Positions 38,706 through 57,645 are shown, numbered from the stretch's first letter. The stretch is DNA of 64,000 bases from an uncultured Chloroflexia bacterium (GCA_963700285.1 CAVOXA010000010.1:160001-224000); one strand, 5' to 3'. Numbers and translations: made by a program. Notes: generated by a model not told the origin, from the letters alone.

Positions 38706-40169
38706 CTATTCATCAAGACCAAAACGCAAAGCCCTGGCTTCTGACACGCCGGAATGGAGGGAAGAGGACTGGGGAAGCAGGATAACAAAGCGACTGCCCT
38801 CACCGGGCGCGCTCTCCACCGTGAGCGTCCCGCCATGAGCCACGACCAGGTCCCGGGCAATGCTCAGACCCAGGCCCATGCCCTGGGGAAAACGTTTGTC
38901 ACGCTGGCTGCGGTAGAAGGGCTCGAAAATACGCTCCTGCTCAGAGGGTGCAATGCCGATACCGGAATCCACGACGTTGATGGCGACTTTTTCTGGCTTG
39001 GCCTCGGCTTCTATAGAAATGGTTCCTTCAGACGTGTACTTGATGGCGTTGCTCAGCAGGTTGCCCAACGCCTGGGCCAGACGGTCAGGGTCGATCTCGA
39101 CCGGAGGTAGCGAGTCGGGGATGTCTATCTCCCAATACAGGCCTTTGTCGTGGGCGGCCTGCCGCCAGGGGATCACGGCACGTGGCAGCCAGGCGCTGAG
39201 GGACACGGACTCGCGGTTCAACTCCAGGCTTCCCAAAACCTGCCCGTGCAGGTCAGCCAAGCTATCCACCAGGGGGCGCAGCCGTTGTACCTGGTCATCC
39301 ATGCCTTCTAGCAGCTCGCGACGTAGCGCTGGCTCCTCGTCGGCCCCGCCCAACAGGGCGTGGAGCGCTGACTGTACCGCCCCCAGGGGCCGTCCCAGTT
39401 CGTGCACCAGGTTCGCCAGCAGATGGCGCCGGGATTCCTCCAACAGTTTGAGCTGTTCAATCAGGGTGTTAAAAGCCCGCAATAGCATGCGGATCTCTTC
39501 TGGATCCTGCTCTGGAAGCGTCTTCCAGTGGCTCCCACTGGCCACGCCATAGATGCCATCCGTCACCCTCCGCAGCGAGCGCCCCAGGCTCAGGGCAAGG
39601 ACCAGACCAAGGATTACACCCAACACGAGACCTACAAGCAAGGTGCCCAAGATCAGACGGCGCAGACCGGTAAATCGTTCGTGGAGCTGAGACAAGCCCT
39701 GGGTCATATGCACAGCGCCCATGACCTCCTGATTGGGCCCCACCACCGGAACGAGGACTTGCACGATCTCGGCCTGCAGGCTCGTGCTATAGTTGACGTG
39801 TACCTCCCGCTCGCCAGCCAAGGCAGCGTACACATCCGCCAGGTCCGGTGTTTGGCTCAACTGCCCACCGCTGCCAGCTTTGCTGGCCGCCAGCAGGTTC
39901 CCATTCGCGTCATAGAGCATCACCTGGGACTGCGAACGGATGCTGTACAGCGTCACAAAGCGCTGGGCTTCGGCACTGTCCGCCCAGATCACGGGCTGGC
40001 CGCTGGCCATGTTGGCCGTCGTTGCACCCTGCGCCACCATCTCATCGGCCAGGCTGGTCAGTTGGCTCTGTGTCTCCAGGATATAGATCAAGGCCGCAGC
40101 CACCAAAGGAATCACCAACAACAGGGGCAGAATGTGGCTCAGGATGAGGCGGCCACGGAGGGTACGCAT
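38706..40169 (-). CDS. HAMP-containing sensor histidine kinase
   Basis: Two TMs, H-box LVHELGRPL, NLLSNAIKY, DSGIGI and GMGLGL. Confidence 0.93.
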   Translation of the reverse strand: MRTLRGRLILSHILPLLLVIPLVAAALIYILETQSQLTSLADEMVAQGATTANMASGQPVIWADSAEAQRFVTLYSIRSQSQVMLYDANGNLLAASKAGSGGQLSQTPDLADVYAALAGEREVHVNYSTSLQAEIVQVLVPVVGPNQEVMGAVHMTQGLSQLHERFTGLRRLILGTLLVGLVLGVILGLVLALSLGRSLRRVTDGIYGVASGSHWKTLPEQDPEEIRMLLRAFNTLIEQLKLLEESRRHLLANLVHELGRPLGAVQSALHALLGGADEEPALRRELLEGMDDQVQRLRPLVDSLADLHGQVLGSLELNRESVSLSAWLPRAVIPWRQAAHDKGLYWEIDIPDSLPPVEIDPDRLAQALGNLLSNAIKYTSEGTISIEAEAKPEKVAINVVDSGIGIAPSEQERIFEPFYRSQRDKRFPQGMGLGLSIARDLVVAHGGTLTVESAPGEGSRFVILLPQSSSLHSGVSEARALRFGLDE

Positions 40170-40174
40170 CGTGC

Positions 40175-40885
40175 TCAGACCTCTGCGCTGGCCGGCTGCG
40201 GTACCAGCTTGTAACCCACGCCGCGTACCGTGATGATACGCTGCGGGTATTTGGGCTCGCTCTCGATCTTTTCTCGCAGCCAGCGGATGTGAACATAGAC
40301 GACCTGAGGTTCGCCTACATATTCTGCGCCCCAGACCTGTGCCAGCAGATCATCCACCGATACGACGTCGCCGGCGCTGAGGGCCAGCGCATGGAGCAGC
40401 GAGAACTCGCGTGGAGCCAGCTCCAGCTTCTTGCCGGCCAACGTGACCACATGCGCCGCGGACTCGATGACGAGGTCTCCGACCTCGATCCGGTTGGCGG
40501 CGGGAGCTGACGCTTCTCCGCGCTCGGAGCGCCGCAGGACAGCCTTGATGCGGGCCAACAGCACGTTCACGTCGAAGGGCTTGGTCACATAATCATCCGC
40601 GCCCAGCTCCAGCCCCAATGCCTGGTCCAGCTCGCGCCGCCGGGCGGTCACAAAGATGATGGGCGTATTGGCTTCTTGCCGAAAGTTGCGCAAGGCATCC
40701 AGGCCGTCCATGCCCGGCAGGCCGATATCCAGAAGGATCAGATCAGGCGCGTCGCGGCGGGCCAGCCTCAGGGCATTTTCCGCGTCGGCTGCCGTGCTGG
40801 CCCGATAGCCGGCCTGTTCCAGATTATAGGCCAGACTGCGCCGCATCAGGGCATCGTCATCTACCAGCAGGATGTGTTTGGTCAT
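40175..40885 (-). CDS. OmpR-family response regulator
   Basis: LLVDDD, LLDIGLP, GADDYVTKPF and ITVRGVGY. Confidence 0.95.
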   Translation of the reverse strand: MTKHILLVDDDALMRRSLAYNLEQAGYRASTAADAENALRLARRDAPDLILLDIGLPGMDGLDALRNFRQEANTPIIFVTARRRELDQALGLELGADDYVTKPFDVNVLLARIKAVLRRSERGEASAPAANRIEVGDLVIESAAHVVTLAGKKLELAPREFSLLHALALSAGDVVSVDDLLAQVWGAEYVGEPQVVYVHIRWLREKIESEPKYPQRIITVRGVGYKLVPQPASAEV

Positions 40886-41220: not shown

Positions 41221-41249
41221 TTGACGAAAACATAGATATGGATTATAAT
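41221..41249 (+). promoter_or_regulatory. distal sigma70 promoter upstream of yceI
   Basis: TTGACG-17 nt-TATAAT. Confidence 0.65.
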
Positions 41250-41357: not shown

Positions 41358-41386
41358 TTGACTTAAGAGAAATCTTGGACTATAAT
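41358..41386 (+). promoter_or_regulatory. proximal sigma70 promoter of yceI
   Basis: TTGACT-17 nt-TATAAT, then RBS AAAGGA. Confidence 0.7.
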
Positions 41387-41410: not shown

Positions 41411-41932
41411 ATGGCTTGGAAAGTTGATCCTACCACATCAAAAGTCGAGTTCACGATCAAGCACCTCATGATCACCAGACAGAGAGGCCGCTTCGAGTCC
41501 TTTGAGGGAAGCCTCAATATGGACGAGGCGGACCCACAGGCATCCTCGGTCGAGGGGACCATCGATGTCGCCAGCATTCGAACCGGCATTGGGCCGCGCG
41601 ACAGTAACCTGCGTTCGTCGGCCTATTTCGACGCAAAGCGCTTCCCGCAGATGAGCTTCCGCAGCACGCGCGTTGGGCCCTTTGAAGGGGATCGGTTTCA
41701 GGTTTTTGGTGATCTGACCATCAAGGAGACGACCCGTCCCGTAGTATTCGACGTCGTCAACAAGGGAGAGATGCCAGGCACTCAGGATGGGCGACGTTGG
41801 GCCTTTCACGCCAGCATCGTCCTGAACCGTAAGGACTATGGCGTCTACTGGAACGCACTGACAGAATTGGGCGGCCTGCTCCTTGGGGACGATGTACAGG
41901 GCGAACTCGAACTGCAAATGGTGTATGAATAA
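41411..41932 (+). CDS. yceI: YceI-family polyisoprenoid/quinone-binding protein (no signal peptide)
   Basis: WKVDPTTSKVEFTIKHLMI, SIRTG..RDSNLRS..YFD..RFP, GDLTIK and LNRKDYG. Confidence 0.9.
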   Translation: MAWKVDPTTSKVEFTIKHLMITRQRGRFESFEGSLNMDEADPQASSVEGTIDVASIRTGIGPRDSNLRSSAYFDAKRFPQMSFRSTRVGPFEGDRFQVFGDLTIKETTRPVVFDVVNKGEMPGTQDGRRWAFHASIVLNRKDYGVYWNALTELGGLLLGDDVQGELELQMVYE

Positions 41933-42034
41933 CCTTTCCTGATCTGAAAGGATGCGGCGGCCGGCATATTGTGCTGGCAACTCCTTGGCCGACGCTGGTC
42001 ATCGAGATCTCATAGACGGTGAATGGAGCTCCCT

Positions 42035-42595
42035 ATGACAGGTAGAACAAAAGCCCGACGCAAGGGACTGCGCCGGGCACTCCTTATCCTTCTGCCTTTG
42101 GCCCTGGTGGCTGTCGCTGCCATGGTCGTGCAGAGCCAGGCCACGGCTGAAGAGACCCCCGCCGAAGCGATCCAATTTAACCACCAGAAGCATGTCTCTG
42201 CCGGTGCCCAATGCCTCTTCTGCCACCCAGGTGGCTACCTCGGCACGGTGGCTGGCATTCCCTCCGTACGCAAGTGCGTAGGCTGTCACGAAAACATCCA
42301 GGTCACGAGTGAAGCGGGCCAGGTCCAGGTCGACCAATTGATGCAGATCTGGGAATCGCGCGAGCCCCTGATCTGGCGCAAAGTCGTTGACCTGCCTGAT
42401 TTTGTCTACTTTTCCCACATGCCCCACATCTCAGCCGGCAAGAATTGCGAAAGATGCCACGGCGACGTGGGCCAAATGACCGTCACCGTGCAGGCCTTCC
42501 GCATCAACATGGGCTTCTGTCTGAAGCAGTGCCACCGCCACGAGGATCCTGCCCGGCGCGAACGCCTGATGGCCTGTGTCACGTGCCACCAGTAG
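42035..42595 (+). CDS. actA: membrane-anchored pentaheme cytochrome c (ActA/QrcA-like)
   Basis: TM helix; CLFCH, CVGCH, CERCH, CLKQCH and CVTCH; LPDFVYFSH and MGFC hallmarks. Confidence 0.88.
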   Translation: MTGRTKARRKGLRRALLILLPLALVAVAAMVVQSQATAEETPAEAIQFNHQKHVSAGAQCLFCHPGGYLGTVAGIPSVRKCVGCHENIQVTSEAGQVQVDQLMQIWESREPLIWRKVVDLPDFVYFSHMPHISAGKNCERCHGDVGQMTVTVQAFRINMGFCLKQCHRHEDPARRERLMACVTCHQ

Positions 42596-42670
42596 GGGCG
42601 GACAGACCCCGCCAGAGACAAGCACGATTGCGGACCGACGGCGTCCGATGGGGGAGCAAAGAGGCCACCG

Positions 42671-44862
42671 ATGTCAAACCAACTGACCCGACGTAATTTT
42701 CTCAAGGTAAGCGCCATGGCAGCAGCCGCCACCGTCGTAAGCGGCTGCACCCCCACCATGCAGCGCACCGAGTATTTGGAATCGTACGTGATGCCTCCTG
42801 AGGAGGGGCTGCCAGGCGAGAACTTGTGGTACGCCAGTACCTGCCGGCAGTGTTCGGCCGGATGTGGTACCTTGGTGCGGCTGAGCGGCGGGCGTGCGCG
42901 AAAAGTCGAGGGCAACCCCTTGCATCCTCTGAATCAGGGCAAACTGTGCGCCCGGGGGCAGGCCGCGCTTCAGGAGACGTGGGATCCCGACCGTCTGCGA
43001 AACGCTGTGCAACAGCCGCAGCGCGGCTCGAGGCAGTTCGAACCATTGTACTGGCCCGAAGCACTGTCGATGCTTTCCGATCGTCTAGGCAGCGTGGATC
43101 CGGCCTCGGTCGCCTTCCTGGGTGGCAACCTGTCTACCCATCTATGGGTCGTCGTCAGGCGCTTCATGGAGGCCATGGGAGGTCGGTCGCCGGTGGCCTA
43201 TACGCTGGCGGATGATCTGTGGGGCCAGCAAGCCCTGGTCAAGAGCAGCGAGGCGCTGTTTGGGGCGGCTGCCGTCCCCCTGTTCGACGTGGCAAACGCC
43301 AACGCGGTATTTTCCTTCGGGGCCAGCTTCCTCGAAACCTGGCTCTCTCCCGTTCATTACGGCCAGGCCTATGCCCGGATGCGCCGTGGGCTTGTAGGCA
43401 AGCGGGGCTACCTGGTGCAGTTCGAGCCTCGCCTGTCCAGCACAGCCGCCGTCGCCGACGAGTGGATCCCGGTCCGACCGGGCACAGAAGGTTTGGTGGC
43501 CCTGGGGCTGGGCAAAATCCTCGTCGAGGAGGGATTGGCCGGTTCACCGCCAGACCCCCAACTCTACGCTGGAGTGGATGTTGGGGAGGTCGCGGCGGCT
43601 AGCGGCGTACCTGTCGAGACGTTGGAGAGACTGGCCCGGCTGTTTGCTGACGTGGGCAGCGTGGTGGCCATCCCAGGTGGGGCCGTAGCCGGTCATTTGA
43701 ACGGCGGTCCAGCCCTGGCTGCCGTACAAGCCCTGAACCAGCTCACCGGCCAACTGGGGCAGCCCGGCGGCGTCTACCTCCCCCCGCTCCGGCGGGCGAA
43801 GCCTTCACGCCTGCGCCTCTTTCGACCTACGCTGACGTCGGTGCCCTCACCGACGACATGGCCGCCGGTCGCGTGCAGGTGCTGCTGGTCCACGGCACGA
43901 ACCCCATGTTCGCGCTGCCACCTGGGCTGGGTTTCTCCGAGGCCCTGGCAAAGGTCGCCCTTGTCGTCTCCTTCAGTCCAACCGTAGACGAGACGGCCGT
44001 CCAGGCTGACCTGATCCTGCCCGATCACACCAGCTTGGAGGGCTGGGGTTACTATGCGCCGGCAGTTTCGAGCCGGACCATCGTCAGCAGCCAGCAACCG
44101 ATTATGCGCCCTCTGTACAGCACGCAGGCTACGGTCGATGTGTTCCTAGCGCTGGCGAGGGAACTGGGCGGTAGGGTAGCTCAGGCACTGCCCTGGCCCA
44201 ACGAAGTCGACTTTGTACGGGAAACGGTCGAGACGCTGAACGATGGGTCGGTGTCTCCCGACGTCTTCTGGGCCGAATGGCGCCAGCGCGGTGGCTACTG
44301 GTCCGAATCGGAAGAAACGCAGGCGCCAGCAGCCAGCGGTGGATTCTCCGGGCCATCGAGCGTGGCCGCACCAGGCCCCGGAGCAGATGCAGATCAGTAT
44401 CCCTACATGCTCTATCCCTACCCGTCCATCGCCCTGCTGGACGGGCGGGGGGCCAACAAGTCGTGGTTGCAGGAGATGCCGGATCCGATGACGACCGTCG
44501 CCTGGCAAACCTGGATCGAGCTCCATCCCCACACGGCCGAGGCGCTGGGTGTAGAGGCGGATGACATCGTACGGGTCATCTCCCCGGCCGGCGAAGTAGA
44601 AGCCATCGTCTACGTCTACCCCGGCATCGCTGACGAGGAGGTGGTGGCCATGCCCATCGGCCGGGGGCACACGGACTATGGCCGCTTTGCAGCGGGCAAG
44701 GGTACCAATCCGATCCGGCTCCTGAGTCCCGAGGCCGACCCAGCAACTGGAACCCTGGCCTGGGCGGCGACGCGGGTGCGCATTGAGCCCACCGGGGAGC
44801 AGAAAACACTGGCCCGCCTGGAAAGTCCGGCCGGCGTTGACTATATGCTGGAAGAGCACTAG
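42671..44862 (+). CDS. actB: Tat-exported molybdopterin-oxidoreductase-like subunit (ActB1/QrcB-like; frameshift ~43790)
   Basis: RRNFLK Tat motif + VSGC lipobox, CRQCSAGC-x27-C, KVEGNPLHP, ADLILPDHTSLEGWG and WLQEMPDPMT..W. Confidence 0.87.
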
Positions 44863-44927
44863 GCGCGTTACGTACCAGCAGAACATTGGAGCAAGGTAGA
44901 ATCTGATTTTGGGGGGAGCCGAGTTCT

Positions 44928-45641
44928 ATGACAGACAACTACCATTGGGGTATGGTCATTGACCTGGACCTCTGCACGGCGTGCCAGGCCTGCGTTGTGG
45001 CCTGCCACGCCGAGAACAATGTACCCGCGGTAGGTGAGGAAGAGGTGGTCCGCAGCCGGGGCATGCACTGGATCCGCATTGAACGCCACTGGCACGGGGG
45101 TGAAGAACACCCGCGAGCCGAGTTTATGCCCCTCCTGTGCCAGCAGTGCCAGAAAGCACCCTGCGAGCCAGTCTGCCCCATGTATGCCACCTACCACGAT
45201 ACCAACAACCAGATCAACGTGCAGGTCTACAACCGCTGCGCCGGCATCCGCTATTGCGGCGTCAACTGCCCCTACAAGGTCCGGACCTTTAACTGGTTCG
45301 ATCCCTACTTCCCGGAGCCGTTGAACGAGCAGCTCAATCCTGACGTTACGGTCCGCCGGCGCGGCATCATGGAGAAATGCAGTTTCTGCATCCAGCGCAT
45401 CCGGCGGGCCAGGGAGTGGTACAAGAACCAGGGCCTGCCTCTGGACACGTCCAAGGTCATCCCGGCCTGCGCGCAAACCTGCCCTACCGGCGCACTGGTT
45501 TTCGGGGACCTGGAAGATCCAGAGAGCGAGGTAGCGCAGTTGTACCAAAGCCCCCGGGGCTTTGCCCTGCTCGAGGAACTGGGTACCAAGCCCTCCATCC
45601 GTTACCTGAAACGAGGCGAGTCCTATGTCCCTTACGGATAG
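44928..45641 (+). CDS. 4Fe-4S ferredoxin subunit (ActB2/QrcC/NrfC-like)
   Basis: CTACQACVVACHAEN, CQQC..APCEPVCP, QVYNRC.G.RYC..NCPY and RGIMEKCSFC. Confidence 0.92.
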   Translation: MTDNYHWGMVIDLDLCTACQACVVACHAENNVPAVGEEEVVRSRGMHWIRIERHWHGGEEHPRAEFMPLLCQQCQKAPCEPVCPMYATYHDTNNQINVQVYNRCAGIRYCGVNCPYKVRTFNWFDPYFPEPLNEQLNPDVTVRRRGIMEKCSFCIQRIRRAREWYKNQGLPLDTSKVIPACAQTCPTGALVFGDLEDPESEVAQLYQSPRGFALLEELGTKPSIRYLKRGESYVPYG

Positions 45642-47079
45642 TGTCAAGGACTGGGCGGGGAGCAGCGCCCCCTCCGCGCAGACGCACGAGGAAGTCGACT
45701 ACAGCAGCTCGCTGATGTATGACCCCCGGCCGCAAGGGGAAATGAACCGCATCGTCTTGGAGGCGATGCAGCGCACCGGCCGGGAATATTGGATCGTAGT
45801 GGGTATCCTCGCCTTCCTGGCTCTGGGCGGCTTTCTGGGCGCCTGGCTGTACATGATCCTGACCGGGATGGGCGTAACCGGACTGAGCCGCCCAAACTTT
45901 TGGGGTATGTTTATCGCCAGCTTTATCTTTTGGATCGGCATCAGCCACGCCGGCACCTTCATATCGGCCATCCTGCGAGTCTTTAATGCCGAATACCGCC
46001 TGCCGATCACGCGCGCTGCGGAGATGATGACCAGCACCTCCCTCCTCGTGGCCGCGTCGTTTCTGGGCATCCATGTGGGCCGGGTTTGGGTCGCCTATTG
46101 GATCGCGCCCTATCCCAACCAGCGCGGTTTGTGGCCCAACTACCACTCCCCCTTCCTTTGGGACGAGATGGCCATTGCGACCTACCTGGTGGGCAGCACG
46201 CTCTATCTCTTCCTGCCGCTGATCCCAGACCTGGCCATGGCTCGCGACCATTTGAAGGGCTGGCGCTACCGGCTCTACCGGGCGCTGTCCCTGGGCTGGA
46301 CGGGCACCGAGCGCCAGTGGCAGAATCTGCACACCGCCATCAAGATCTTTTCCATCGCCATCATCCCCGTCATGTTCTCGGTGCACACCATCGTCTCCTG
46401 GGACTTGGCCATGACCAAGGCGATTGGCTGGCGCAGCTCGATCTTTGCGCCCTACTTTATCGTCGGCGCCGTGTTCTCGGGGCTGTCGGCAGCCATCACG
46501 GTGCTGATCATCGCCCGTTCCAGCATGAAGCTCCAGTATTTTATCCGCCGCGAGCACCTCGACGGCTTGGCCAGGCTGGTGCTGATCTTTTCCTTCATCT
46601 GGACCTACTTTTTCTTTGCCGACTTTCTCATGGAATGGTACGGCGGCGATGCCGCGGGACACGCGCTCACTGAGCTCCTGACCCAGGGCGCGATGGCTCC
46701 CTTCTGGTACACCATGCTCTTCTTCAACATCGTCGTGCCCTGCCTGACGCTCTGGAACAAAAGGGTGCGCAACTCGCCTATCGCGCTCCTGTTGATCACC
46801 CTCGGCATCAATATCGGCATGTATTTGGAGCGCTACATCATCGTCACCGGCTTCCTACAGCGCAACCACCTCCCCTTCAACTGGGGCGATTACTCGCCAT
46901 CGGTGGTAGAGATCTCGATCGTGACCGGCTCGCTGGCCGCCTTTCTCCTCTTGTACGCGCTACTGTCGCGCCTGATACCCTTGATCCCGATCTGGGAAGT
47001 GCGCGAGGGCCAGATAGCCCACGGCCTGAAGCGCGTGGGCGCGACCACGCTCAAGACGGTTACCGAGCTGGAAGAATAG
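45625..47079 (+). CDS. actC: NrfD-family quinol-binding membrane subunit ActC
   Basis: FWIGISHAGTFISAIL, R.AEMMT, IHVGRVW, SPFLWD, SVHTIVSWD and YLERY. Confidence 0.92.
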   Translation: MSLTDSVKDWAGSSAPSAQTHEEVDYSSSLMYDPRPQGEMNRIVLEAMQRTGREYWIVVGILAFLALGGFLGAWLYMILTGMGVTGLSRPNFWGMFIASFIFWIGISHAGTFISAILRVFNAEYRLPITRAAEMMTSTSLLVAASFLGIHVGRVWVAYWIAPYPNQRGLWPNYHSPFLWDEMAIATYLVGSTLYLFLPLIPDLAMARDHLKGWRYRLYRALSLGWTGTERQWQNLHTAIKIFSIAIIPVMFSVHTIVSWDLAMTKAIGWRSSIFAPYFIVGAVFSGLSAAITVLIIARSSMKLQYFIRREHLDGLARLVLIFSFIWTYFFFADFLMEWYGGDAAGHALTELLTQGAMAPFWYTMLFFNIVVPCLTLWNKRVRNSPIALLLITLGINIGMYLERYIIVTGFLQRNHLPFNWGDYSPSVVEISIVTGSLAAFLLLYALLSRLIPLIPIWEVREGQIAHGLKRVGATTLKTVTELEE

Positions 47080-47089
47080 GAGTTAAGCC

Positions 47090-47632
47090 ATGGCGGAACA
47101 ACCACAGCCGCTGGAACCAGCCATTGTCATGAGCTCATTCTTGGAGATCGACCCCACGACCGCTGCCCTCCAAGAGCTTCGGTCGTTGGGCATCCCGGAC
47201 GGAGATGTGACCGTGCGTTCCAGCTTACCCTACTCGGCCGAAATCCTGGGGCGACCCCACGCCAAGAGCAAGCTGACCGTCATCAGCCTCGTGGCAGCCC
47301 TGGTGGGTTTGGGGGTGGGCATCTTTTTCACGGTCATCACGCCCTTTCTGTATATCATCCGCGTGGGTGGGCAGCCCATCGTGCCCCTGCCGCCTACGGC
47401 CCTGCTCCTGTACGAGTTCATCATGCTCGCCCTGATCATAGGCACCTTTGGCGGCTTCCTGGCGCTGAACCGCTTCCCAGACAGCAAGCCCCAGCACTAC
47501 GATCCCGATCTGACCAACGGCCGGATCAACCTGCTGGTCCACTCGCCTGCGGACAGAAAGGCCAACGTCGTCGCCATCCTCGAGGCACACGGGGGCGAGG
47601 TCATCCAGGATCCGGAACGGAGGAGTCTATGA
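47090..47632 (+). CDS. actD: ActD (DUF3341) subunit
   Basis: Two TMs with VGGQP and YEF; position after actC. Confidence 0.78.
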   Translation: MAEQPQPLEPAIVMSSFLEIDPTTAALQELRSLGIPDGDVTVRSSLPYSAEILGRPHAKSKLTVISLVAALVGLGVGIFFTVITPFLYIIRVGGQPIVPLPPTALLLYEFIMLALIIGTFGGFLALNRFPDSKPQHYDPDLTNGRINLLVHSPADRKANVVAILEAHGGEVIQDPERRSL

Positions 47633-48165
47633 GCGCACACGCCGAAAAGGAGCGGCCCAGGATCTGGCGTTGGCTCATCCCCCTTCTGATCCTACTGGCA
47701 GTTGGAGCCCTGCTGCTCATGCTGACCTACGAGATCATCTATGTGGATTTCGTCAGCTTTATGGAGGATCAGCCTTCGGTTGGCTACCAGGAGCCGCCGC
47801 GCCGGTACGCGGCAGAGGGAGCGGTGTCCATTGAGCGACCTGCCTACCTCAATGAACCGGCCACCATGGTGAACCCTGTCCCGTCCGACGAGGTATCCCT
47901 GCAGCGTGGGGCGCTCCTCTTTGGCACGCATTGTGCCCTGTGTCACGGGCCCAAGGGCCGGGGTGACGGGCCCATCGTAGACTACTGGAAGCCCGATGCT
48001 CGCCGGCCAGCCGACCTGTCCGCAGAGCGATTCAAGCAGTATCCCGACAGCCTGTTGTACGGGGTCATTACCCAGGGGATTGGCGGTATGCCGCCCCTGC
48101 GCGAAAACATGAACGAGCGTCAATACTGGGATGTGATCAACTTTGTGCGTACGCTCCAACCATGA
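47629..48165 (+). CDS. actE: monoheme cytochrome c ActE
   Basis: MEDQPS, NPVP..RG..LF..CALCHG..G.GDG and G.GGMP. Confidence 0.85.
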   Translation: MSAHAEKERPRIWRWLIPLLILLAVGALLLMLTYEIIYVDFVSFMEDQPSVGYQEPPRRYAAEGAVSIERPAYLNEPATMVNPVPSDEVSLQRGALLFGTHCALCHGPKGRGDGPIVDYWKPDARRPADLSAERFKQYPDSLLYGVITQGIGGMPPLRENMNERQYWDVINFVRTLQP

Positions 48166-48182
48166 CCGGTGGAAAGGAACCG

Positions 48183-48644
48183 ATGGTGAAACGTTTTACC
48201 CTTCTGACCATGGCCCTGATGGTAATCGCCTTGTTCGCTCTTGGCTGTGCCTACCAACCGGATGTGCCGCCAACGCCGATCCCGACCCTGGCTCCCGCTA
48301 CGATGCCGCCTGCACCGCCGACCCAACCTGCCGCCAGCGCGGAGGCGACGGCCGGCCCTGCCCCCGAAGGAGGCACTGCCGGCGCCAACGACCTGGTAAC
48401 AGCGGGCAGCCAAGTATTCGAGCAGACCTGCGCCGTTTGTCACAATCTGAACACAGAGACCAAGGTGGGGCCAGGCCTGGCCGGCCTCTTTGACCGGCAG
48501 CAGCTACCCAACGGCAATCCTGTCAGCGAGGCGAACCTGAAGGAATGGATTGTCACAGGCGGTGGCGCCATGCCGGGACTGCCCCTGACTGACGAGCAGC
48601 TAGCAGGGGTCGTTGCCTTCCTCCAGGACGCGACGCAGCAATAG
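48183..48644 (+). CDS. lipoprotein monoheme cytochrome c with Pro-rich tether
   Basis: ALGC lipobox, PTPIPTLAP linker, CAVCH, VGPGL and GGGAMP. Confidence 0.85.
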   Translation: MVKRFTLLTMALMVIALFALGCAYQPDVPPTPIPTLAPATMPPAPPTQPAASAEATAGPAPEGGTAGANDLVTAGSQVFEQTCAVCHNLNTETKVGPGLAGLFDRQQLPNGNPVSEANLKEWIVTGGGAMPGLPLTDEQLAGVVAFLQDATQQ

Positions 48645-48665
48645 CCCACAGGGAATAATGAGGCC

Positions 48666-49571
48666 GTGACCGCTTCAGCCACATCGGGACGGATGCCAGT
48701 CAAAGACCTCTTGCTCCACCTGAGGTTGCAGTGGCAGATCCTCCTGGCCCCCCTGTTCCTGTGGGGCTTTCTGCTTTCGGCAGGCGCAAGAGCGCCCGGC
48801 CTGATCACGCCCGAGTTCTGGCTCGTCTTTTTCATCTTTCACGTAATGTTCTACGGCGGAGCCACAGCCCTAAACTCCTACTATGACCAGGATGAAGGCC
48901 CTGTCGGCGGGCTGTGGGAGCCGCCTCAGGCTACCCATGACCTCTTGGTCTTTGCTGTGGCGCTACAAGTTCTCGGGCTGGGGCTGCTCTTCTTCATCAG
49001 CCGTCCCCTCTTTGTCCTGGCCCTGATCATGGGGGCCGTAGGCAACGCCTACTCCCATCCAGCCACCCGCCTCAAAGCAAAGCCCTGGACCAGCCTGCTG
49101 GCGGTGAGCGTTTTCCAGGGCATGGGTGGCACGGCTGCGGGTTGGCTCTACGCCCAGGAGAACTGGCAGACCTTGTTCACCGCGGAGGGGATCCTGGCCA
49201 TGCTGGCTGCGGCGCTGATCATCACCGGCTTTTACCCGCTGACGCAGATCTACCAACGGGAACAGGACCGGAAGCAGGGAGTGGTCTCATTTGCCGTCTA
49301 TGCAGGAGAAAGATGCTTCCCCCTGGCCATCACCTGCATGCTGGCGGCGGCTGGTTTGCTGGGCTATCTCGCCTGGCGTACCTTTGGCCCCTTTGAGGCC
49401 CTGCTGGCGTTTGTTGGCCCGGTCGGGCTGGCGGTCTATATCGGTATCTGGTGGCGGCGGTACGACGACAGCCAGGTACGGACCAACTACCTGTGGATGA
49501 TGCGCCTGGGCTATCTGATGACCGGCGGGTTCCTGGTTTTTCTCCTTTACGTATTCTTCCTGGGGCTTTAG
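48666..49571 (+). CDS. UbiA-family prenyltransferase
   Basis: Many TMs; ALNSYYDQDEGP, AYSHP..RLK and YPLTQIYQREQD..QG. Confidence 0.82.
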   Translation: MTASATSGRMPVKDLLLHLRLQWQILLAPLFLWGFLLSAGARAPGLITPEFWLVFFIFHVMFYGGATALNSYYDQDEGPVGGLWEPPQATHDLLVFAVALQVLGLGLLFFISRPLFVLALIMGAVGNAYSHPATRLKAKPWTSLLAVSVFQGMGGTAAGWLYAQENWQTLFTAEGILAMLAAALIITGFYPLTQIYQREQDRKQGVVSFAVYAGERCFPLAITCMLAAAGLLGYLAWRTFGPFEALLAFVGPVGLAVYIGIWWRRYDDSQVRTNYLWMMRLGYLMTGGFLVFLLYVFFLGL

Positions 49572-49575
49572 AGCT

Positions 49576-50796
49576 ATGCCCCACTGGGATTACGACGTCA
49601 TTGTCGTCGGCGCCGGCGTTGCCGGGGCCTCCAGCGCCATCCTGCTGGGCCGGGAGGGCTATCGCGTTCTGCTGGTGGACCGGGCCGTGTTCCCCCGCCA
49701 CAAAACGTGCGGTGAAGGGATCATGCCCGAGGGGGTGAGGATCCTCGGCGCTCTGGGGGTGCTGCCTGCCGTCCTCGAGCAGGCCGGCCCTCAAGTCCGG
49801 GGCCTCAGGTTCCGCAGCCAGGCCGGTGTGTGGGCTCAGGCCGATTTTCCCCCGGTGTCGGGCGAGCGCGCCTACAGCGTCGTGGTCCGTCGCTACGAAC
49901 TGGATCATCTACTCGTTCAGGCTGCAAAGTCCTTGTCCAACGTCACCGTCCGGGAGGGCTTTGCGATGTTGGAAGCCCTCCACGATGGAGGCTCGATCCA
50001 GGGCATTGTCGGCCATCCGGTGGATCGGATGGGGGGCCGCGAGACACTGCAGGCGCCGCTGACGCTGGCCGCCGACGGTATGCGCTCCCAGTTTCACAAC
50101 CGGTATGGCATCACCAGGGCAGTTCGACGCCGTCAGCGCTGGGGAATATCGGGGCACCTTCATGGAGTCCAGGACCTGCGTCCCTACATCGAGGTCCTGT
50201 ACCAAGGGGAGTACGAGGTTTATCTTGCCCCGCTGGGCGGTGACCTGGCACTAGTGGCGATTCTGCTGGAAAAGAAGGCAATGCGCGCCTTCCGGGGTGA
50301 TCTAGCCAGCGCCTACCACCAGTTCTTGAAGGCGGATTCGGCGCTCGGCCCCAGGATCCGACAGAGCGAGGTCGTACCCCCGGTGGGGGCCCGGGGACCA
50401 CTGGGATTCACAGTCGAGCCGGTCTACCTGCCTGGCCTACTGCTGGTGGGCGACAGCGCCGGGTTCATCGACCCCATCACCGGCGAAGGGATGACCCTGG
50501 CGCTCAAGGGCGTGCAGGCGGCCGTGCCGGTCGTAAAACGGGCCTTTGAAACCGGGGATTTTGGCCATGATGTCCTGGGCCAGTATGCGATGGAGCGGGC
50601 ACGAACCATTGAGGATGTAGCCAAGCTCACCCAGCTCATGTTGGAGGTGTCACGCTCCAGCCTGCTGGCCGATCGGGCGATCCGCCGCCTGAGTAAGGAC
50701 GAAAAGCTGTTTCAGAAGCTCATGGGCATCGTCACCGGCGCCAACCGCTACAACGATTTTACGCTCAGGGATAGGCTGGCCCTGGCCTTGGGGTGA
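49576..50796 (+). CDS. NAD(P)/FAD-dependent oxidoreductase (geranylgeranyl reductase/aromatic hydroxylase family)
   Basis: DVIVVGAGVAG, FPRHKTCGEG, ADG and GDSAGFIDPITGEGM. Confidence 0.88.
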   Translation: MPHWDYDVIVVGAGVAGASSAILLGREGYRVLLVDRAVFPRHKTCGEGIMPEGVRILGALGVLPAVLEQAGPQVRGLRFRSQAGVWAQADFPPVSGERAYSVVVRRYELDHLLVQAAKSLSNVTVREGFAMLEALHDGGSIQGIVGHPVDRMGGRETLQAPLTLAADGMRSQFHNRYGITRAVRRRQRWGISGHLHGVQDLRPYIEVLYQGEYEVYLAPLGGDLALVAILLEKKAMRAFRGDLASAYHQFLKADSALGPRIRQSEVVPPVGARGPLGFTVEPVYLPGLLLVGDSAGFIDPITGEGMTLALKGVQAAVPVVKRAFETGDFGHDVLGQYAMERARTIEDVAKLTQLMLEVSRSSLLADRAIRRLSKDEKLFQKLMGIVTGANRYNDFTLRDRLALALG

Positions 50797-50860
50797 TACG
50801 GTTTTCTCCAATTTTCCGCCGGCCAAAACTTGGCCCAGATGCAGCACTCGGACCAGAACC

Positions 50861-51565
50861 ATGCTAGATCACCGTGTGTCAGGTCCCGAATGGATGGACG
50901 GGCCCGATTTTGGCCGCCAGCAGGTAGCTGATACCTTTCGTTTCTTGGTGCCGGTGAATCGCCTGTTTGGCGGGATCCGCCCAGCACTGTCCTTCTTCCG
51001 ACAGGAGAGCCGAACCTGGGACCGCCAGCAAACCTACCATATCCTCGACGCGGGATGCGGCGTGGGAGATGTGGCCCTGGCCCTCGCCAAGTGGGCCCGT
51101 CGCAGCGGCTTCCAACTCCGGATCGATGCTGTGGACAAGCATCCCGCGGCTGTCGAGCTTGGCCGCCAGAAGTGCCAGGCCTACCCCGAGATCGAGTTCT
51201 TTTGCCGCGATGTCCTGCAGTACAAGGGCGCAGAGTATGACTATGTCCACGCCTCCCAGTTCGTCCACCACTTCCCGGACGAGGAGGTTGGTCCCCTGCT
51301 ATGGCATTTTCTGGCCATGTGCCAACACAAAGTGGTGGTCAACGATCTAGTACGCGCCCCGCTGGCCTATCTGGCCACCTGGCTGTTCACGCTGGTGACA
51401 TCGCCCGTGTTCCGACACGACGCACGGTTATCGGTCAAGCGGGGGTTCCGGCTCGAGGAGCTTCGAAAACTGCTAAAAGAAGGCGGCGTCCATGATTTTC
51501 GCCTTGAGCGTCGCTTTTTCTACCGCTTTCTTCTTGTCGTGAACAAGATGGACATTCCTACCTAA
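50861..51565 (+). CDS. class I SAM-dependent methyltransferase (type III PKS-associated type)
   Basis: R...EWMD...VNRLFGG, ILDAGCGVGD, FVHH, NDL.R and HD..LSV.RGF. Confidence 0.85.
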   Translation: MLDHRVSGPEWMDGPDFGRQQVADTFRFLVPVNRLFGGIRPALSFFRQESRTWDRQQTYHILDAGCGVGDVALALAKWARRSGFQLRIDAVDKHPAAVELGRQKCQAYPEIEFFCRDVLQYKGAEYDYVHASQFVHHFPDEEVGPLLWHFLAMCQHKVVVNDLVRAPLAYLATWLFTLVTSPVFRHDARLSVKRGFRLEELRKLLKEGGVHDFRLERRFFYRFLLVVNKMDIPT

Positions 51566-51717
51566 CCGGTTCCGTACCGAAGGCAAGCCTCCCTCGAGCG
51601 ACCCGGCCCTGCATCCCGGGCCGCGCGCGTTTCCCGAGAGCACGGTATTTTGCTTACAGACGGAACCGGCCAACGATGATAGGCTGTACGTCAATCAGCA
51701 ACCAGGAGTACCACAGG

Positions 51718-52776
51718 ATGTTAGACGTACGCATCGTAGCAACGGGCACGGCCAATCCTCCCTTGCGTGCCTCACAACAGGAGAGTTTTGACGTCTATGT
51801 TGAACTTGTCCCTCTCTCCGACGACGCCAGGTCGTTGTTGCGAAGGATCTCGGTGGAAAACGAGTCTATCGGTTTCCGCCACTTTGCCATGGACACACCA
51901 ACAGATGTGCTTCAGGACTCCCAGGACGAGCTGATCGCTCGATACAAAAAGTTCGGCGTACAGGTGGCCGTTGAGGCTGCGAACAAAGCGCTGACCGGGG
52001 CTGGCCTGACGCCTGACGACATCGATATCTTGGTGGTGAACACCTGCACCGGCTACCTATGCCCCGGTCTGACTAGCTACGTGGCCGAGGCATTGCCGCT
52101 CAGAGCGGACGTTCACCCCTTTGACCTGCAGGGCATGGGCTGCGGCGGCGCAGTGCCCAACCTGGAGACGGCCTACAACTTTCTGCAGGTCCACCCCAAC
52201 AGTAATGCCCTGGTCATTGCTGTCGAGATCTGTAGCGCAACCGTCTACTTTGACGAAGCGCCTGACATCCTCGTATCAAACGCGATATTTGGCGACGGAG
52301 CGGGTGCCGCCGTGCTAACCAACCGGCCCGGGAACGGTGGTATGCGCCTCAAGCGCTTCGCCGCTGGCCTGTTCCCCCAGGATCGACAGCACTTGCACTA
52401 TCGAACTGAGAACTCGAAGCTGCGCAACGTGCTCAGCATGAGGGTCCCCGTCCTTGGAGCCCGGCACGGCAAGGAAGTGATCGACCAGCTCTTGTCGCAG
52501 AATGGGACGGGCTACCAAGATATCCGGCACTGGATCGTGCACCCCGGTGGGGAAAAGGTACTCGATGCTTTCGAGCAGGCCCTTGACCTCCCAGCCGACG
52601 AACTGGCGCCCTCTCGTAGTGTATTGTACAACTATGGAAACATGTCCTCCGCAACGGTGATGTTTGTGCTGGAGGAAGTGTTGCGCAGTCGCTCGCCCCA
52701 GCCTGGCGACCTGGCCCTGATGTGCAGCTTTGGCGCGGGTTTTGGCGTGTATGCTGTGCTGCTAGAGTTTCTATAA
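51718..52776 (+). CDS. type III polyketide synthase
   Basis: Cys-His-Asn triad: GMGCGG, VHPGG and YGNMSS; also FGDGA and SFGAG. Confidence 0.93.
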   Translation: MLDVRIVATGTANPPLRASQQESFDVYVELVPLSDDARSLLRRISVENESIGFRHFAMDTPTDVLQDSQDELIARYKKFGVQVAVEAANKALTGAGLTPDDIDILVVNTCTGYLCPGLTSYVAEALPLRADVHPFDLQGMGCGGAVPNLETAYNFLQVHPNSNALVIAVEICSATVYFDEAPDILVSNAIFGDGAGAAVLTNRPGNGGMRLKRFAAGLFPQDRQHLHYRTENSKLRNVLSMRVPVLGARHGKEVIDQLLSQNGTGYQDIRHWIVHPGGEKVLDAFEQALDLPADELAPSRSVLYNYGNMSSATVMFVLEEVLRSRSPQPGDLALMCSFGAGFGVYAVLLEFL

Positions 52777-52796
52777 ACAAAAGTACTGTGATAGAC

Positions 52797-52824
52797 AAAG
52801 GCCGGGGGCATGCCCCCGGCCTTT
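52797..52824. terminator. bidirectional terminator between PKS and batE
   Basis: Perfect palindrome AAAGGCCGGGGGCATGCCCCCGGCCTTT. Confidence 0.8.
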
Positions 52825-56464: not shown

Positions 56465-57542
56465 TTATCCCTCCCCTTCTATTGACCGCTGGCCGCCGAC
56501 CATCGCTCGTGCATGGCCGCGCGCCTTCTGAGCTACCTTGGCCACGATGCGATCCGGGATCAACTCGATGGCGATCATGAGAGCCAGCGCCGCCAGCAGG
56601 AATGGCTGGAATCGTTCGATCCCCAGGATTTCAAGTTGGCTGGACAGCTCGGCCTTTTGTAGCATGTTCAGTTCTTCAACAAACGCAGCCAGCTCACTGC
56701 CATCCGCGCTGGCCCGAAAGTACCGGCCCCCGCCGACCTCGGCAATCTGCTGCAGTGTGGCCTCGTCGAGCTTGGAGAGAACCACTTCGCCCTGCTGGTC
56801 CTGCTTGTAGCCAATGATCTGACCCCGGGCGTCGTATTCTGGGATCGGCTCGCCCTGCGGCGATCCAAAACCAATGGCGTAGAGCATGATGCCCTGTTCG
56901 GCTGCCGCTTCTGCCATGGCCAGCGCATCGCCGCCGTGATCCTCGCCATCGGTGATCAACACGATCACCTTCTGGCTGGTCCGCGACATGTCAAAGCCGG
57001 CCATGGCCGTGCGGATGGCGTCACCGATGGCGGTACCGGGCCTCGAAATCACCTCCGGCCGGGCGTTGTCCAGGAAGGTCAGGGCCGTGCCATAGTCGGA
57101 GGTCAGCGGGAACTGGACAAAGCTGGCTCCCGAAAAGAGGACCAGGCCGATCTCGTCGCCGCCCAGCCGCGTCATCAGGTCGGCAATCTCCATCTTGGCC
57201 CGGCTCAGGCGGTCGGGCTTGATGTCTTGGGCCAACATGCTCTTGGACACGTCCAGGGCAACCATCACCTCGATGCCCTCCTGCTCGACCTCCTGGATCA
57301 CCGTGCCCCACATGCGGCCGGGCCAGCGAGATGAGCAGCAATGCCAGGACGACGAGCCACAGGCCATCCCGCCAGCGGCGGCCGCGCCAGTTGACCGTGT
57401 TGCTCAGGCGCTGCACCAGCGCCGGATCTCCCAGCCGGCCGAGATCCCTCTTGCGCCGCCGGGCCGCCCACACCAGAAAGAGACCCATCAGCGGCAGTAG
57501 TGTCAACAATCCGTACAAGAAAACCGGTTGTGCGAAAGTCAT
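56465..57542 (-). CDS. batB: BatB-like vWA protein (frameshift ~57315)
   Basis: MTFAQP...LARP, DVSKSM (MIDAS), PLTSD and ITDGEDH. Confidence 0.87.
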
Positions 57543-57645
57543 AGTTACCCATCCTTTTCCGTCTTGCTCAGAGCATCGTGTTGCGTGATTCGTGGTCCGT
57601 GACCTGTGGACATGTTGGGCGTCACACGCACCACGTGCCACGTAC

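Follow-up and report, generated by a model that had tools for sequence, protein, structure and literature searches.

Can a respiratory complex travel with the genes for a quinone of its own? The question is raised by a stretch of 64,000 nucleotides (nt) from an uncultured Chloroflexia bacterium (the window, G000:C10:160001-224000, in a 7.05 Mb genome of 22 contigs), where the genes of an alternative complex III (ACIII) lacking ActF, actA-B1-B2-C-D-E plus a cytochrome c, are followed by ubiA and by genes for a flavin adenine dinucleotide (FAD) enzyme, a methyltransferase and a type III polyketide synthase (PKS). An earlier note on this DNA proposed a dedicated quinone pathway with its own complex. 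We find that the coupling is real and is conserved in a subgroup of Anaerolineae, and that three independent lines, namely the remodelled quinol pocket of ActC, the placing of ubiA in ACIII-caa3 superoperons and the exchange of FAD for U32 enzymes, fit the proposal; its YceI and Qrc components did not hold. We judge the chances about even that a prenylated polyketide (hydro)quinone is the product of this module and is oxidised by the linked complex. We put forward more tentatively, as possible, a new respiratory isoprenoid quinone route with a PKS-derived head group, hydroxylation by an FAD or U32 enzyme, a tail added by UbiA and an ACIII pocket remodelled to match. The parts are of known kinds; we found no description of a conserved run that joins them to a complex whose pocket has been remodelled.

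The twelve genes named earlier lie on the plus strand, at the positions and in the families then given, according to open reading frame (ORF) calls and family searches. With their flanking signals they are:

41221-41249 and 41358-41386, plus strand: two sigma70-like promoter matches (11/12) 5' of yceI, matching the consensus only
41411..41932, plus strand: yceI, YceI-family lipid/polyprenyl-binding protein with no evident signal peptide (PF04264, E 8e-43)
42023..42595, plus strand: actA, penta-heme cytochrome c by its heme motifs (four CxxCH and one CxxxCH; QrcA model 73 bits, cut-off 180)
42671..44862, plus strand: actB1, molybdopterin-oxidoreductase-like subunit with Tat signal and lipobox, one frameshift near 43779
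44928..45641, plus strand: actB2, iron-sulfur (Fe-S) subunit as a separate gene (PF13247; QrcC model 248 bits, cut-off 400)
45625..47079, plus strand: actC, NrfD-like quinol-binding subunit (His150, Asp180 and Asp260 kept; Leu147, Phe177, Glu181)
47090..47632, plus strand: actD (PF11821, E 6e-20)
47629..48165, plus strand: actE, mono-heme cytochrome c (one CxxCH)
48162..48644, plus strand: mono-heme cytochrome c lipoprotein, which probably accepts the electrons (lipobox-like Cys29)
48666..49571, plus strand: ubiA, UbiA-superfamily prenyltransferase of a PKS-associated subfamily (PF01040, UbiA fold, motifs)
49576..50796, plus strand: FAD-dependent oxidoreductase of the geranylgeranyl-reductase/halogenase/monooxygenase group
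50861..51565, plus strand: class I S-adenosylmethionine methyltransferase, PRK06202-like (167 bits, cut-off 243)
51718..52776, plus strand: type III PKS, ORF open from 51676 (Cys156-His289-Asn322; Tyr242 at the CHS-Gly256 position; numbered from 51676)
52797..52824, plus strand: GC hairpin between the PKS gene and a convergent TPR gene, probable terminator

Spacing within the run is as tight as had been claimed, with 21 nt from cytochrome c to ubiA and 4 nt from ubiA to the FAD gene; 64 nt separate the FAD and methyltransferase genes and 110 nt the methyltransferase and PKS genes (152 nt to the probable PKS start at 51718), and actC/actB2, actE/actD and cytochrome c/actE overlap. The strong terminator reported after the PKS gene probably corresponds to the hairpin at 52797-52824 (-31.3 kcal/mol, z -4.8, 0/200 shuffles), which a terminator scan did not list; five internal intergenic stretches fold more weakly (z -1.8 to +0.7).

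The first evidence for a functional union is its conservation. Our main comparison set held 401 genomes of the same class, and an eighth linked genome, G019, came from a first sample of 61 relatives. UbiA homologues among the 401 were either close (at least 53% identity; seven genomes including G000, that of the window) or distant (at most 47%; 19 genomes), and the seven top-scoring of 59 ActC matches belonged to exactly the seven genomes with a close UbiA. A close PKS (57-100%) occurred in 5/7 of these and in 0/394 others, where the best matches reached at most 40%, and among the other 52 ActC genomes just one carried a member of this UbiA subfamily, a distant one. We then counted respiratory neighbours in every fetched locus, 80 of 188 metagenome hits among them. 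A gene of the act, cytochrome c, cytochrome b5-like or cox kind was located no more than 1.3 kb away, in the same orientation, for 21/21 distinct close UbiAs (act or cytochrome c for 16, cox or b5-like only for 5) and for 0/62 distant ones; close UbiAs entered this count with at least 200 nt upstream and distant ones with at least 600 nt, which excluded 5 close rows (at most 159 nt) and 16 distant rows. Synteny comparison showed the linkage in metagenomes as well as in genomes from three families of the class, so the adjacency of act and PKS genes is not peculiar to the genome in which the earlier note saw it. A phylum-wide sample of 301 genomes held no further close UbiA (best 44%), and searches of the ESM Atlas returned generic UbiA and U32 clusters only. 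Of the 100 top UbiA clusters, 14 have a contig of the same length as that of a top PKS cluster, judging by eye; this is only a hint of linkage, because one pair (1430 nt) is too short for both genes and must be chance.

The arrangement itself varies. G006 has the order of G000, interrupted by a contig break inside ubiA, and G079, from another family, runs act...cytochrome c-(cytochrome b5/DUF2231)-ubiA-FAD-(flavoprotein)-methyltransferase-PKS; G032 has a similar layout without the PKS gene. G009 and G019 carry yceI-act-cytochrome c-ubiA-FAD-methyltransferase with the PKS gene on a separate contig. In G038 and G085 the order is act-cytochrome c-b5-ubiA-cox; a U32-methyltransferase-PKS set sits on a separate contig in G038, and the PKS, the methyltransferase, a close FAD enzyme and U32 were not found in the genome of G085. 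Locus L039 reads act...cox-ubiA-ctaB-sco, facing U32-methyltransferase-PKS. Thus ubiA lies inside or beside caa3 genes in G038, G085, L039, L129 and L141, and in L129 the FAD gene stands between coxB and coxA.

YceI, which the earlier note counted in the set, lies upstream of act in a subclade of the host's own family (G009, G019, L127, L134) and not in G032, G038, G079 or L126; we therefore rejected it as a constant part. Where yceI is absent, actA is preceded by a gene for a GlcD-like FAD-linked oxidase, which might feed electrons into the quinone pool (L059:18133-19713, L053:28-1368, L126:1768-2125). Many linked loci also carry a cytochrome b5-like and DUF2231 membrane protein between cytochrome c and ubiA or cox (L059:8231-8932, L053:8343-9062, L060:7401-8102, L126:9232-9975, L039:17820-18557), which is absent from G000. 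In one genus there are insertions of unrelated genes between actB1 and actB2: EamA, NTPase and CopG-like genes (G079, L059:12640-14950), and an NTPase-like gene with an unassigned ORF (G032, L052:13200-15460).

The tightest link is act-cytochrome c-ubiA. Of the four biosynthetic genes ubiA alone adjoins act or cox genes in every informative case, often beside ctaB or cox, and G085 retains it without the other three. These facts would suit a UbiA working directly for the respiratory complexes, perhaps as the prenyltransferase for a heme or for an aromatic compound taken up from outside, with the PKS, methyltransferase and FAD genes as looser passengers. We consider this improbable. The UbiA subfamily tracks type III PKSs genome-wide, in 19/26 genomes with it vs 23/375 without, a comparison in which kin are not independent (18/25 when the unpublished G338 is left out). 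A role as heme O synthase was rejected, the model scoring 19.5 bits against a cut-off of 210 and true ctaB genes lying separately in G085, G038, L039 and L141. None of the MenA, MqnP and CtaB models exceeded its cut-off (best NCBIfam score 23 bits), and real menA, mqnP-like and ctaB genes are located elsewhere in the linked genomes. The protein is nonetheless a UbiA by fold: its predicted model (pLDDT 83) gave 14 structure matches at E<=0.001, all in the UbiA superfamily, and it carries motif 1 as NSYYDxDxGP and an atypical motif 2, TQxYQRxxD.

Could the genes be adjacent by accident, or through a single ancient insertion that was passed on with no function? All linked ActCs fall in one clade, hence have one origin, and the PKS gene has been relocated in several genomes, as such a history would allow. 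Yet the linkage has persisted while UbiA diverged to 52-55% identity and the operon was rearranged several times in three families, and we hold this explanation to be extremely unlikely.

What kind of complex is linked here? The label "ACIII/Qrc-like" in the earlier note is correct in its first half. ActC matched solved chains of ActC far better (E 7e-83 to 3e-77) than those of ActF (1e-6 and 1e-4), and the locus has a five-heme ActA, a molybdopterin-like and Fe-S ActB (as two genes), an ActC with His/Asp/Asp, ActD and a mono-heme ActE. It shares the ActA-E homologues, the quinol-site His/Asp/Asp and the frequent proximity to caa3 genes with the ACIIIs of Rhodothermus marinus, Flavobacterium johnsoniae and Roseiflexus castenholzii; it differs from them in lacking ActF, in dividing ActB between two genes, in adding a lipoprotein cytochrome c, in two pocket replacements (Pro138 to Leu, Leu168 to Phe) and in its attached biosynthetic genes. 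With QrcABCD of sulfate reducers it has in common separate multiheme, molybdopterin-like and Fe-S subunits, and QrcA, QrcB and QrcC are its best NCBIfam hits. However, we rejected Qrc identity: the scores were 73/180 bits for QrcA, 146 and 128/440 for QrcB and 248/400 for QrcC, an intact ActB1 from G079 reached 318/440 with the QrcB model, and there was no QrcD hit. The locus further departs from Qrc in its quinone-site His, where the part of the source available to us gives Asp120 for QrcD (PMC8076601), and in ActD, ActE and the caa3 linkage. Because relatives link act genes to a caa3 oxidase, quinol oxidation is a better inference than Qrc-type quinone reduction.

We found no ActF, the second NrfD-like subunit, in the locus. 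ActC is the sole PF03916 hit in the G079 genome, and the further PF03916 hits of G000 lie on contig C1 beside other Fe-S genes. Thus, the complex probably works like an ACIII but as an ActF-less variant, and the linkage to caa3 in relatives suggests a quinol:cytochrome c oxidoreductase. Similar ActC genes occur in 59/401 genomes of the class, and 17 unlinked act loci that we examined share the layout A-B1-B2-C-D-E as far as their contigs extend; within the class, therefore, an ACIII that has a split ActB and no ActF beside it is widespread.

If the module supplies a quinone to this complex, the quinol pocket might bear its mark. The R. castenholzii pocket, as given in the portion of the report that we could consult, comprises Trp84, Ile88, Phe91, Pro138, Leu168, His141, Asp171, Asp252 and Ile249 (PMC7439408), which align in the same order with Trp93, Ile97, Phe100, Leu147, Phe177, His150, Asp180, Asp260 and Val257 of G000 ActC. 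Pro138 is thus replaced by Leu147, and Leu168 by Phe177. The 13 linked ActCs (12 different) form a single clade against 16 unlinked ones (support 100/100), and four columns, 147, 148, 160 and 177, are fixed in 13/13 linked and absent from 16/16 unlinked sequences, two of them in the pocket as listed in that portion (hypergeometric p 0.002). Glu181 is found in 11/13 linked and 0/16 unlinked ActCs. Five of six control groupings lacked any pocket column; the sixth is taken up below. The ActC of G085 (L060:4256-5710; L140), in whose genome the PKS, methyltransferase and close FAD genes were not found, has Asp for the otherwise invariant His150 and Ala for Glu181.

Pocket changes confined to the linked clade would also be expected if the module made a quinone-analogue inhibitor and the altered ActC conferred self-resistance; aurachins are prenylated aromatic inhibitors of respiration. 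We think this very unlikely, as the altered ActC is the only one (no second copy was found in the G000 genome) and not a second, resistant copy, the run holds no exporter gene, and core caa3 genes are interspersed among those of the module.

What the module might make is suggested by its PKS, whose nearest relatives are from Anaerolineae. The triad Cys156-His289-Asn322 is intact in a protein of the chalcone-synthase fold family, with Pks11 as the best solved match (E 1e-37) and DpgA as the best NCBIfam hit (193 bits, cut-off 425). Tyr242 aligns with Tyr224 of THNS and with a Trp of Pks11; at this position 120 clade members have Tyr in 110, Phe in 9 and Trp in none, and 25 distant PKSs from the fetched loci have Trp in 23 and Phe in 2. 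In the accessible part of one source, THNS Tyr224 selects a malonyl-CoA starter and ArsB Trp281 favours alkylresorcinols (PMC6274091). The residue suggests that our PKS may use a short starter, and the active site points less to the long-chain alkylresorcinols of srs and agq type than the earlier note had assumed. In G038 and L039 a Cys-rich U32 protein takes the place of the FAD enzyme before the methyltransferase and PKS genes; according to the part of the literature available to us, U32 proteins hydroxylate quinones independently of O2, and flavin and U32 enzymes interchange in ubiquinone synthesis (PMC10990095). This U32 subfamily, with CxxxC and further Cys, lies directly before the methyltransferase and PKS genes (L033:6796-7998, L039:8106-9302) and is a candidate O2-independent aromatic hydroxylase.

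Known gene sets of similar make-up can be read in two ways. Mycobacterium smegmatis and Streptomyces MNU77 use polyketide quinones (PkQs) as alternative electron carriers, as far as the consulted text goes (PMC9927152), and their pkqABC genes, like srsABC, combine a type III PKS, a methyltransferase and an oxidoreductase, a likeness of gene class; as described in those parts of the sources, they have Trp at the ArsB-281 position, where our PKS has Tyr, and form a three-gene operon without a prenyltransferase or respiratory complex. The agqABCD genes of Actinoplanes missouriensis encode the same four enzyme classes, prenyltransferase included, if the FAD enzyme is taken as the putative hydroxylase; this is again a likeness of class (PMC7692728, PMC10896814). 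In contrast to our locus, the sections available to us indicate no respiratory linkage for agq, and its product, an alkyl-O-dihydrogeranyl-methoxyhydroquinone, is there given as of unknown function (PMC7692728, PMC10896814). The hidABC (hierridin) and planctomycetal methyltransferase-oxidoreductase-PKS operons share the trio with FAD oxidoreductase and methyltransferase but, in the parts seen, differ in having no UbiA, alkylresorcinol products and unconserved neighbours (PMC10896814). We found no paper describing the coupling of a respiratory complex with a PKS-UbiA set, in a search largely of literature outside subscription journals.

From these sets one could also expect a phenolic lipid with no respiratory role, such as an O-prenyl ether of the agq type or an antioxidant or membrane lipid resembling hierridin. 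Its genes would stay in the operon because O2 respiration calls for the lipid, and the ACIII would draw on salvaged menaquinol. In the published descriptions as far as available, known PKS-methyltransferase-FAD(-UbiA) sets yield such lipids, and many other bacteria have the same UbiA subfamily with PKS sets and without act genes; menaquinone-salvage genes are present, and ActC retains the menaquinone-type His/Asp/Asp site. Such a lipid would not account for pocket substitutions that mark the linked clade and are partly reversed in G085, for a PKS of the distinct Tyr type, or for an FAD gene between coxB and coxA. We regard it as rather unlikely.

Would a polyketide quinone be the only quinone of these hosts? 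The genes mqnA/D, mqnC and menB were found in 0/8 linked vs 7/15 unlinked ACIII genomes (Fisher p 0.05). We nevertheless rejected the idea that the linked hosts have no menaquinone pathway and the PKS product as their sole quinone, since salvage operons occur in linked genomes and 8/15 unlinked genomes also lack the de novo genes; among those eight, menA is present in 7/8 and an MqnP-like gene in 5. The conserved importer operons in question are candidate naphthoate importers for menaquinone salvage: an importer beside menA at G000:C1:1413000-1417800 (L083), and an importer with ubiD and an mqnP-like gene in G009, G019, G032, G038 and G079 (L214-L219). In G079 ubiE stands beside the salvage operon, and the short contig of G085 has only ubiD-mqnP. 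The linked hosts thus likely obtain menaquinone by salvage, and the PKS product would therefore be a second quinone.

What the sequences show is gene content, conserved linkage, co-occurrence and residue states; the chemistry that we infer from them would run as follows. The PKS would build a small resorcinol- or orsellinate-type ring from malonyl-CoA, probably on a short starter given Tyr242; the ring would be hydroxylated to a hydroquinone, with O2 by the FAD enzyme or without O2 by the U32 enzyme, methylated by the methyltransferase and C-prenylated by UbiA, with YceI possibly carrying the polyprenyl diphosphate or the quinone. ActC would then oxidise the quinol at His150/Asp180, and electrons may pass through the Fe-S clusters of ActB2 to the hemes of ActA and ActE, and from there by way of the lipoprotein cytochrome c to a caa3 oxidase. 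A quinone of this kind would supplement menaquinone, which the hosts could make only from imported naphthoate.

Several observations weigh against a polyketide quinone oxidised by the linked complex. The PKS gene adjoins the operon for certain in only 2/8 linked genomes (three with G006); it lies elsewhere in G009, G019 and G038, and it was not found in G032 (91% complete) or G085 (95%), both of which retain ubiA. An aromatic residue at PKS position 242 is also compatible with alkylresorcinol synthases (ArsB Trp281), and hydroxylation is only a possible role of the FAD enzyme, which scores best with the model of the geranylgeranyl-reductase family (124 bits, cut-off 159) and, among solved structures, is closest to a halogenase; the U32 exchange amounts to two proteins, 76% identical to each other. 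The agq system, the nearest four-gene precedent, gives O-prenyl ethers by the part of the account available (PMC7692728), and such ethers would presumably not cycle as quinones. The linked ActC clade is one evolutionary event, and the sixth control grouping, the clade f37+G007 without the module, has pocket substitutions (columns 100 and 147; p 0.009), so a pocket change also occurs without the module. Absence of the de novo menaquinone genes is no peculiarity of linked hosts, being shared by 8/15 unlinked ACIII genomes. Nor do these hosts want for a quinone prenyltransferase: a separate ubiD-mqnP-like operon occurs in 6/8 linked genomes, with an NMT1-type ABC importer visible beside 5; in G000 menA adjoins the same kind of importer. 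Finally, no heme-copper or bd oxidase hit was obtained in G032 and G079, and the caa3 genes of G000 itself are frameshifted; a bd oxidase is present in G000.

Respiratory quinones are known from few routes, and in the parts of the sources consulted the evidence for PkQs as carriers is confined to Actinobacteria, and no partner enzyme dedicated to them is described. The operon thus presents a candidate new quinone together with a natural test of ACIII quinone specificity at two named pocket positions, and bears on the respiration of Anaerolineae without de novo menaquinone genes. If the proposal is correct, menaquinone-auxotrophic Anaerolineae would gain a self-made quinone branch to caa3. Four small biosynthetic genes suit heterologous expression, and the claim is testable without culturing the host.

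Some features of the locus and its assembly remain to be recorded. The actB1 gene appears as two overlapping ORFs (42671-43987 and 43858-44862), which is likely an assembly error, because the contig of a ~94% identical relative (run X1) has one extra base in the C-run at 43779, actB1 is a single ORF in 22/22 related loci, and 4/30 tested G000 genes, actB1 included, show a frame change (a baseline computed on 170/296 candidate ORFs). The caa3 operon at G000:C1:475500-482000 (L081; coxB, coxA, ctaG, ctaB) has several frameshifts, exceeding this baseline, through assembly noise or decay. A scan gave six sigma70-like sites vs 4.2 ± 2.0 in shuffles, a number not beyond chance. Metatranscriptome X17 contigs are identical to the window in actB1, in 48626-48810 (19 letters of which fall in cytochrome c) and in the PKS gene, and are not counted as evidence of transcription. 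Genes for an OmpR-type regulator and a histidine kinase lie at 38706-40885 of the window on the minus strand, divergent from yceI, and are not at this place in G009 and G019. At 56465-57641 of the window, also on the minus strand, two overlapping ORFs resemble one frameshift-split vWA gene, which we take from its sequence to be BatB-like, in a Bat-like operon converging on the PKS gene.

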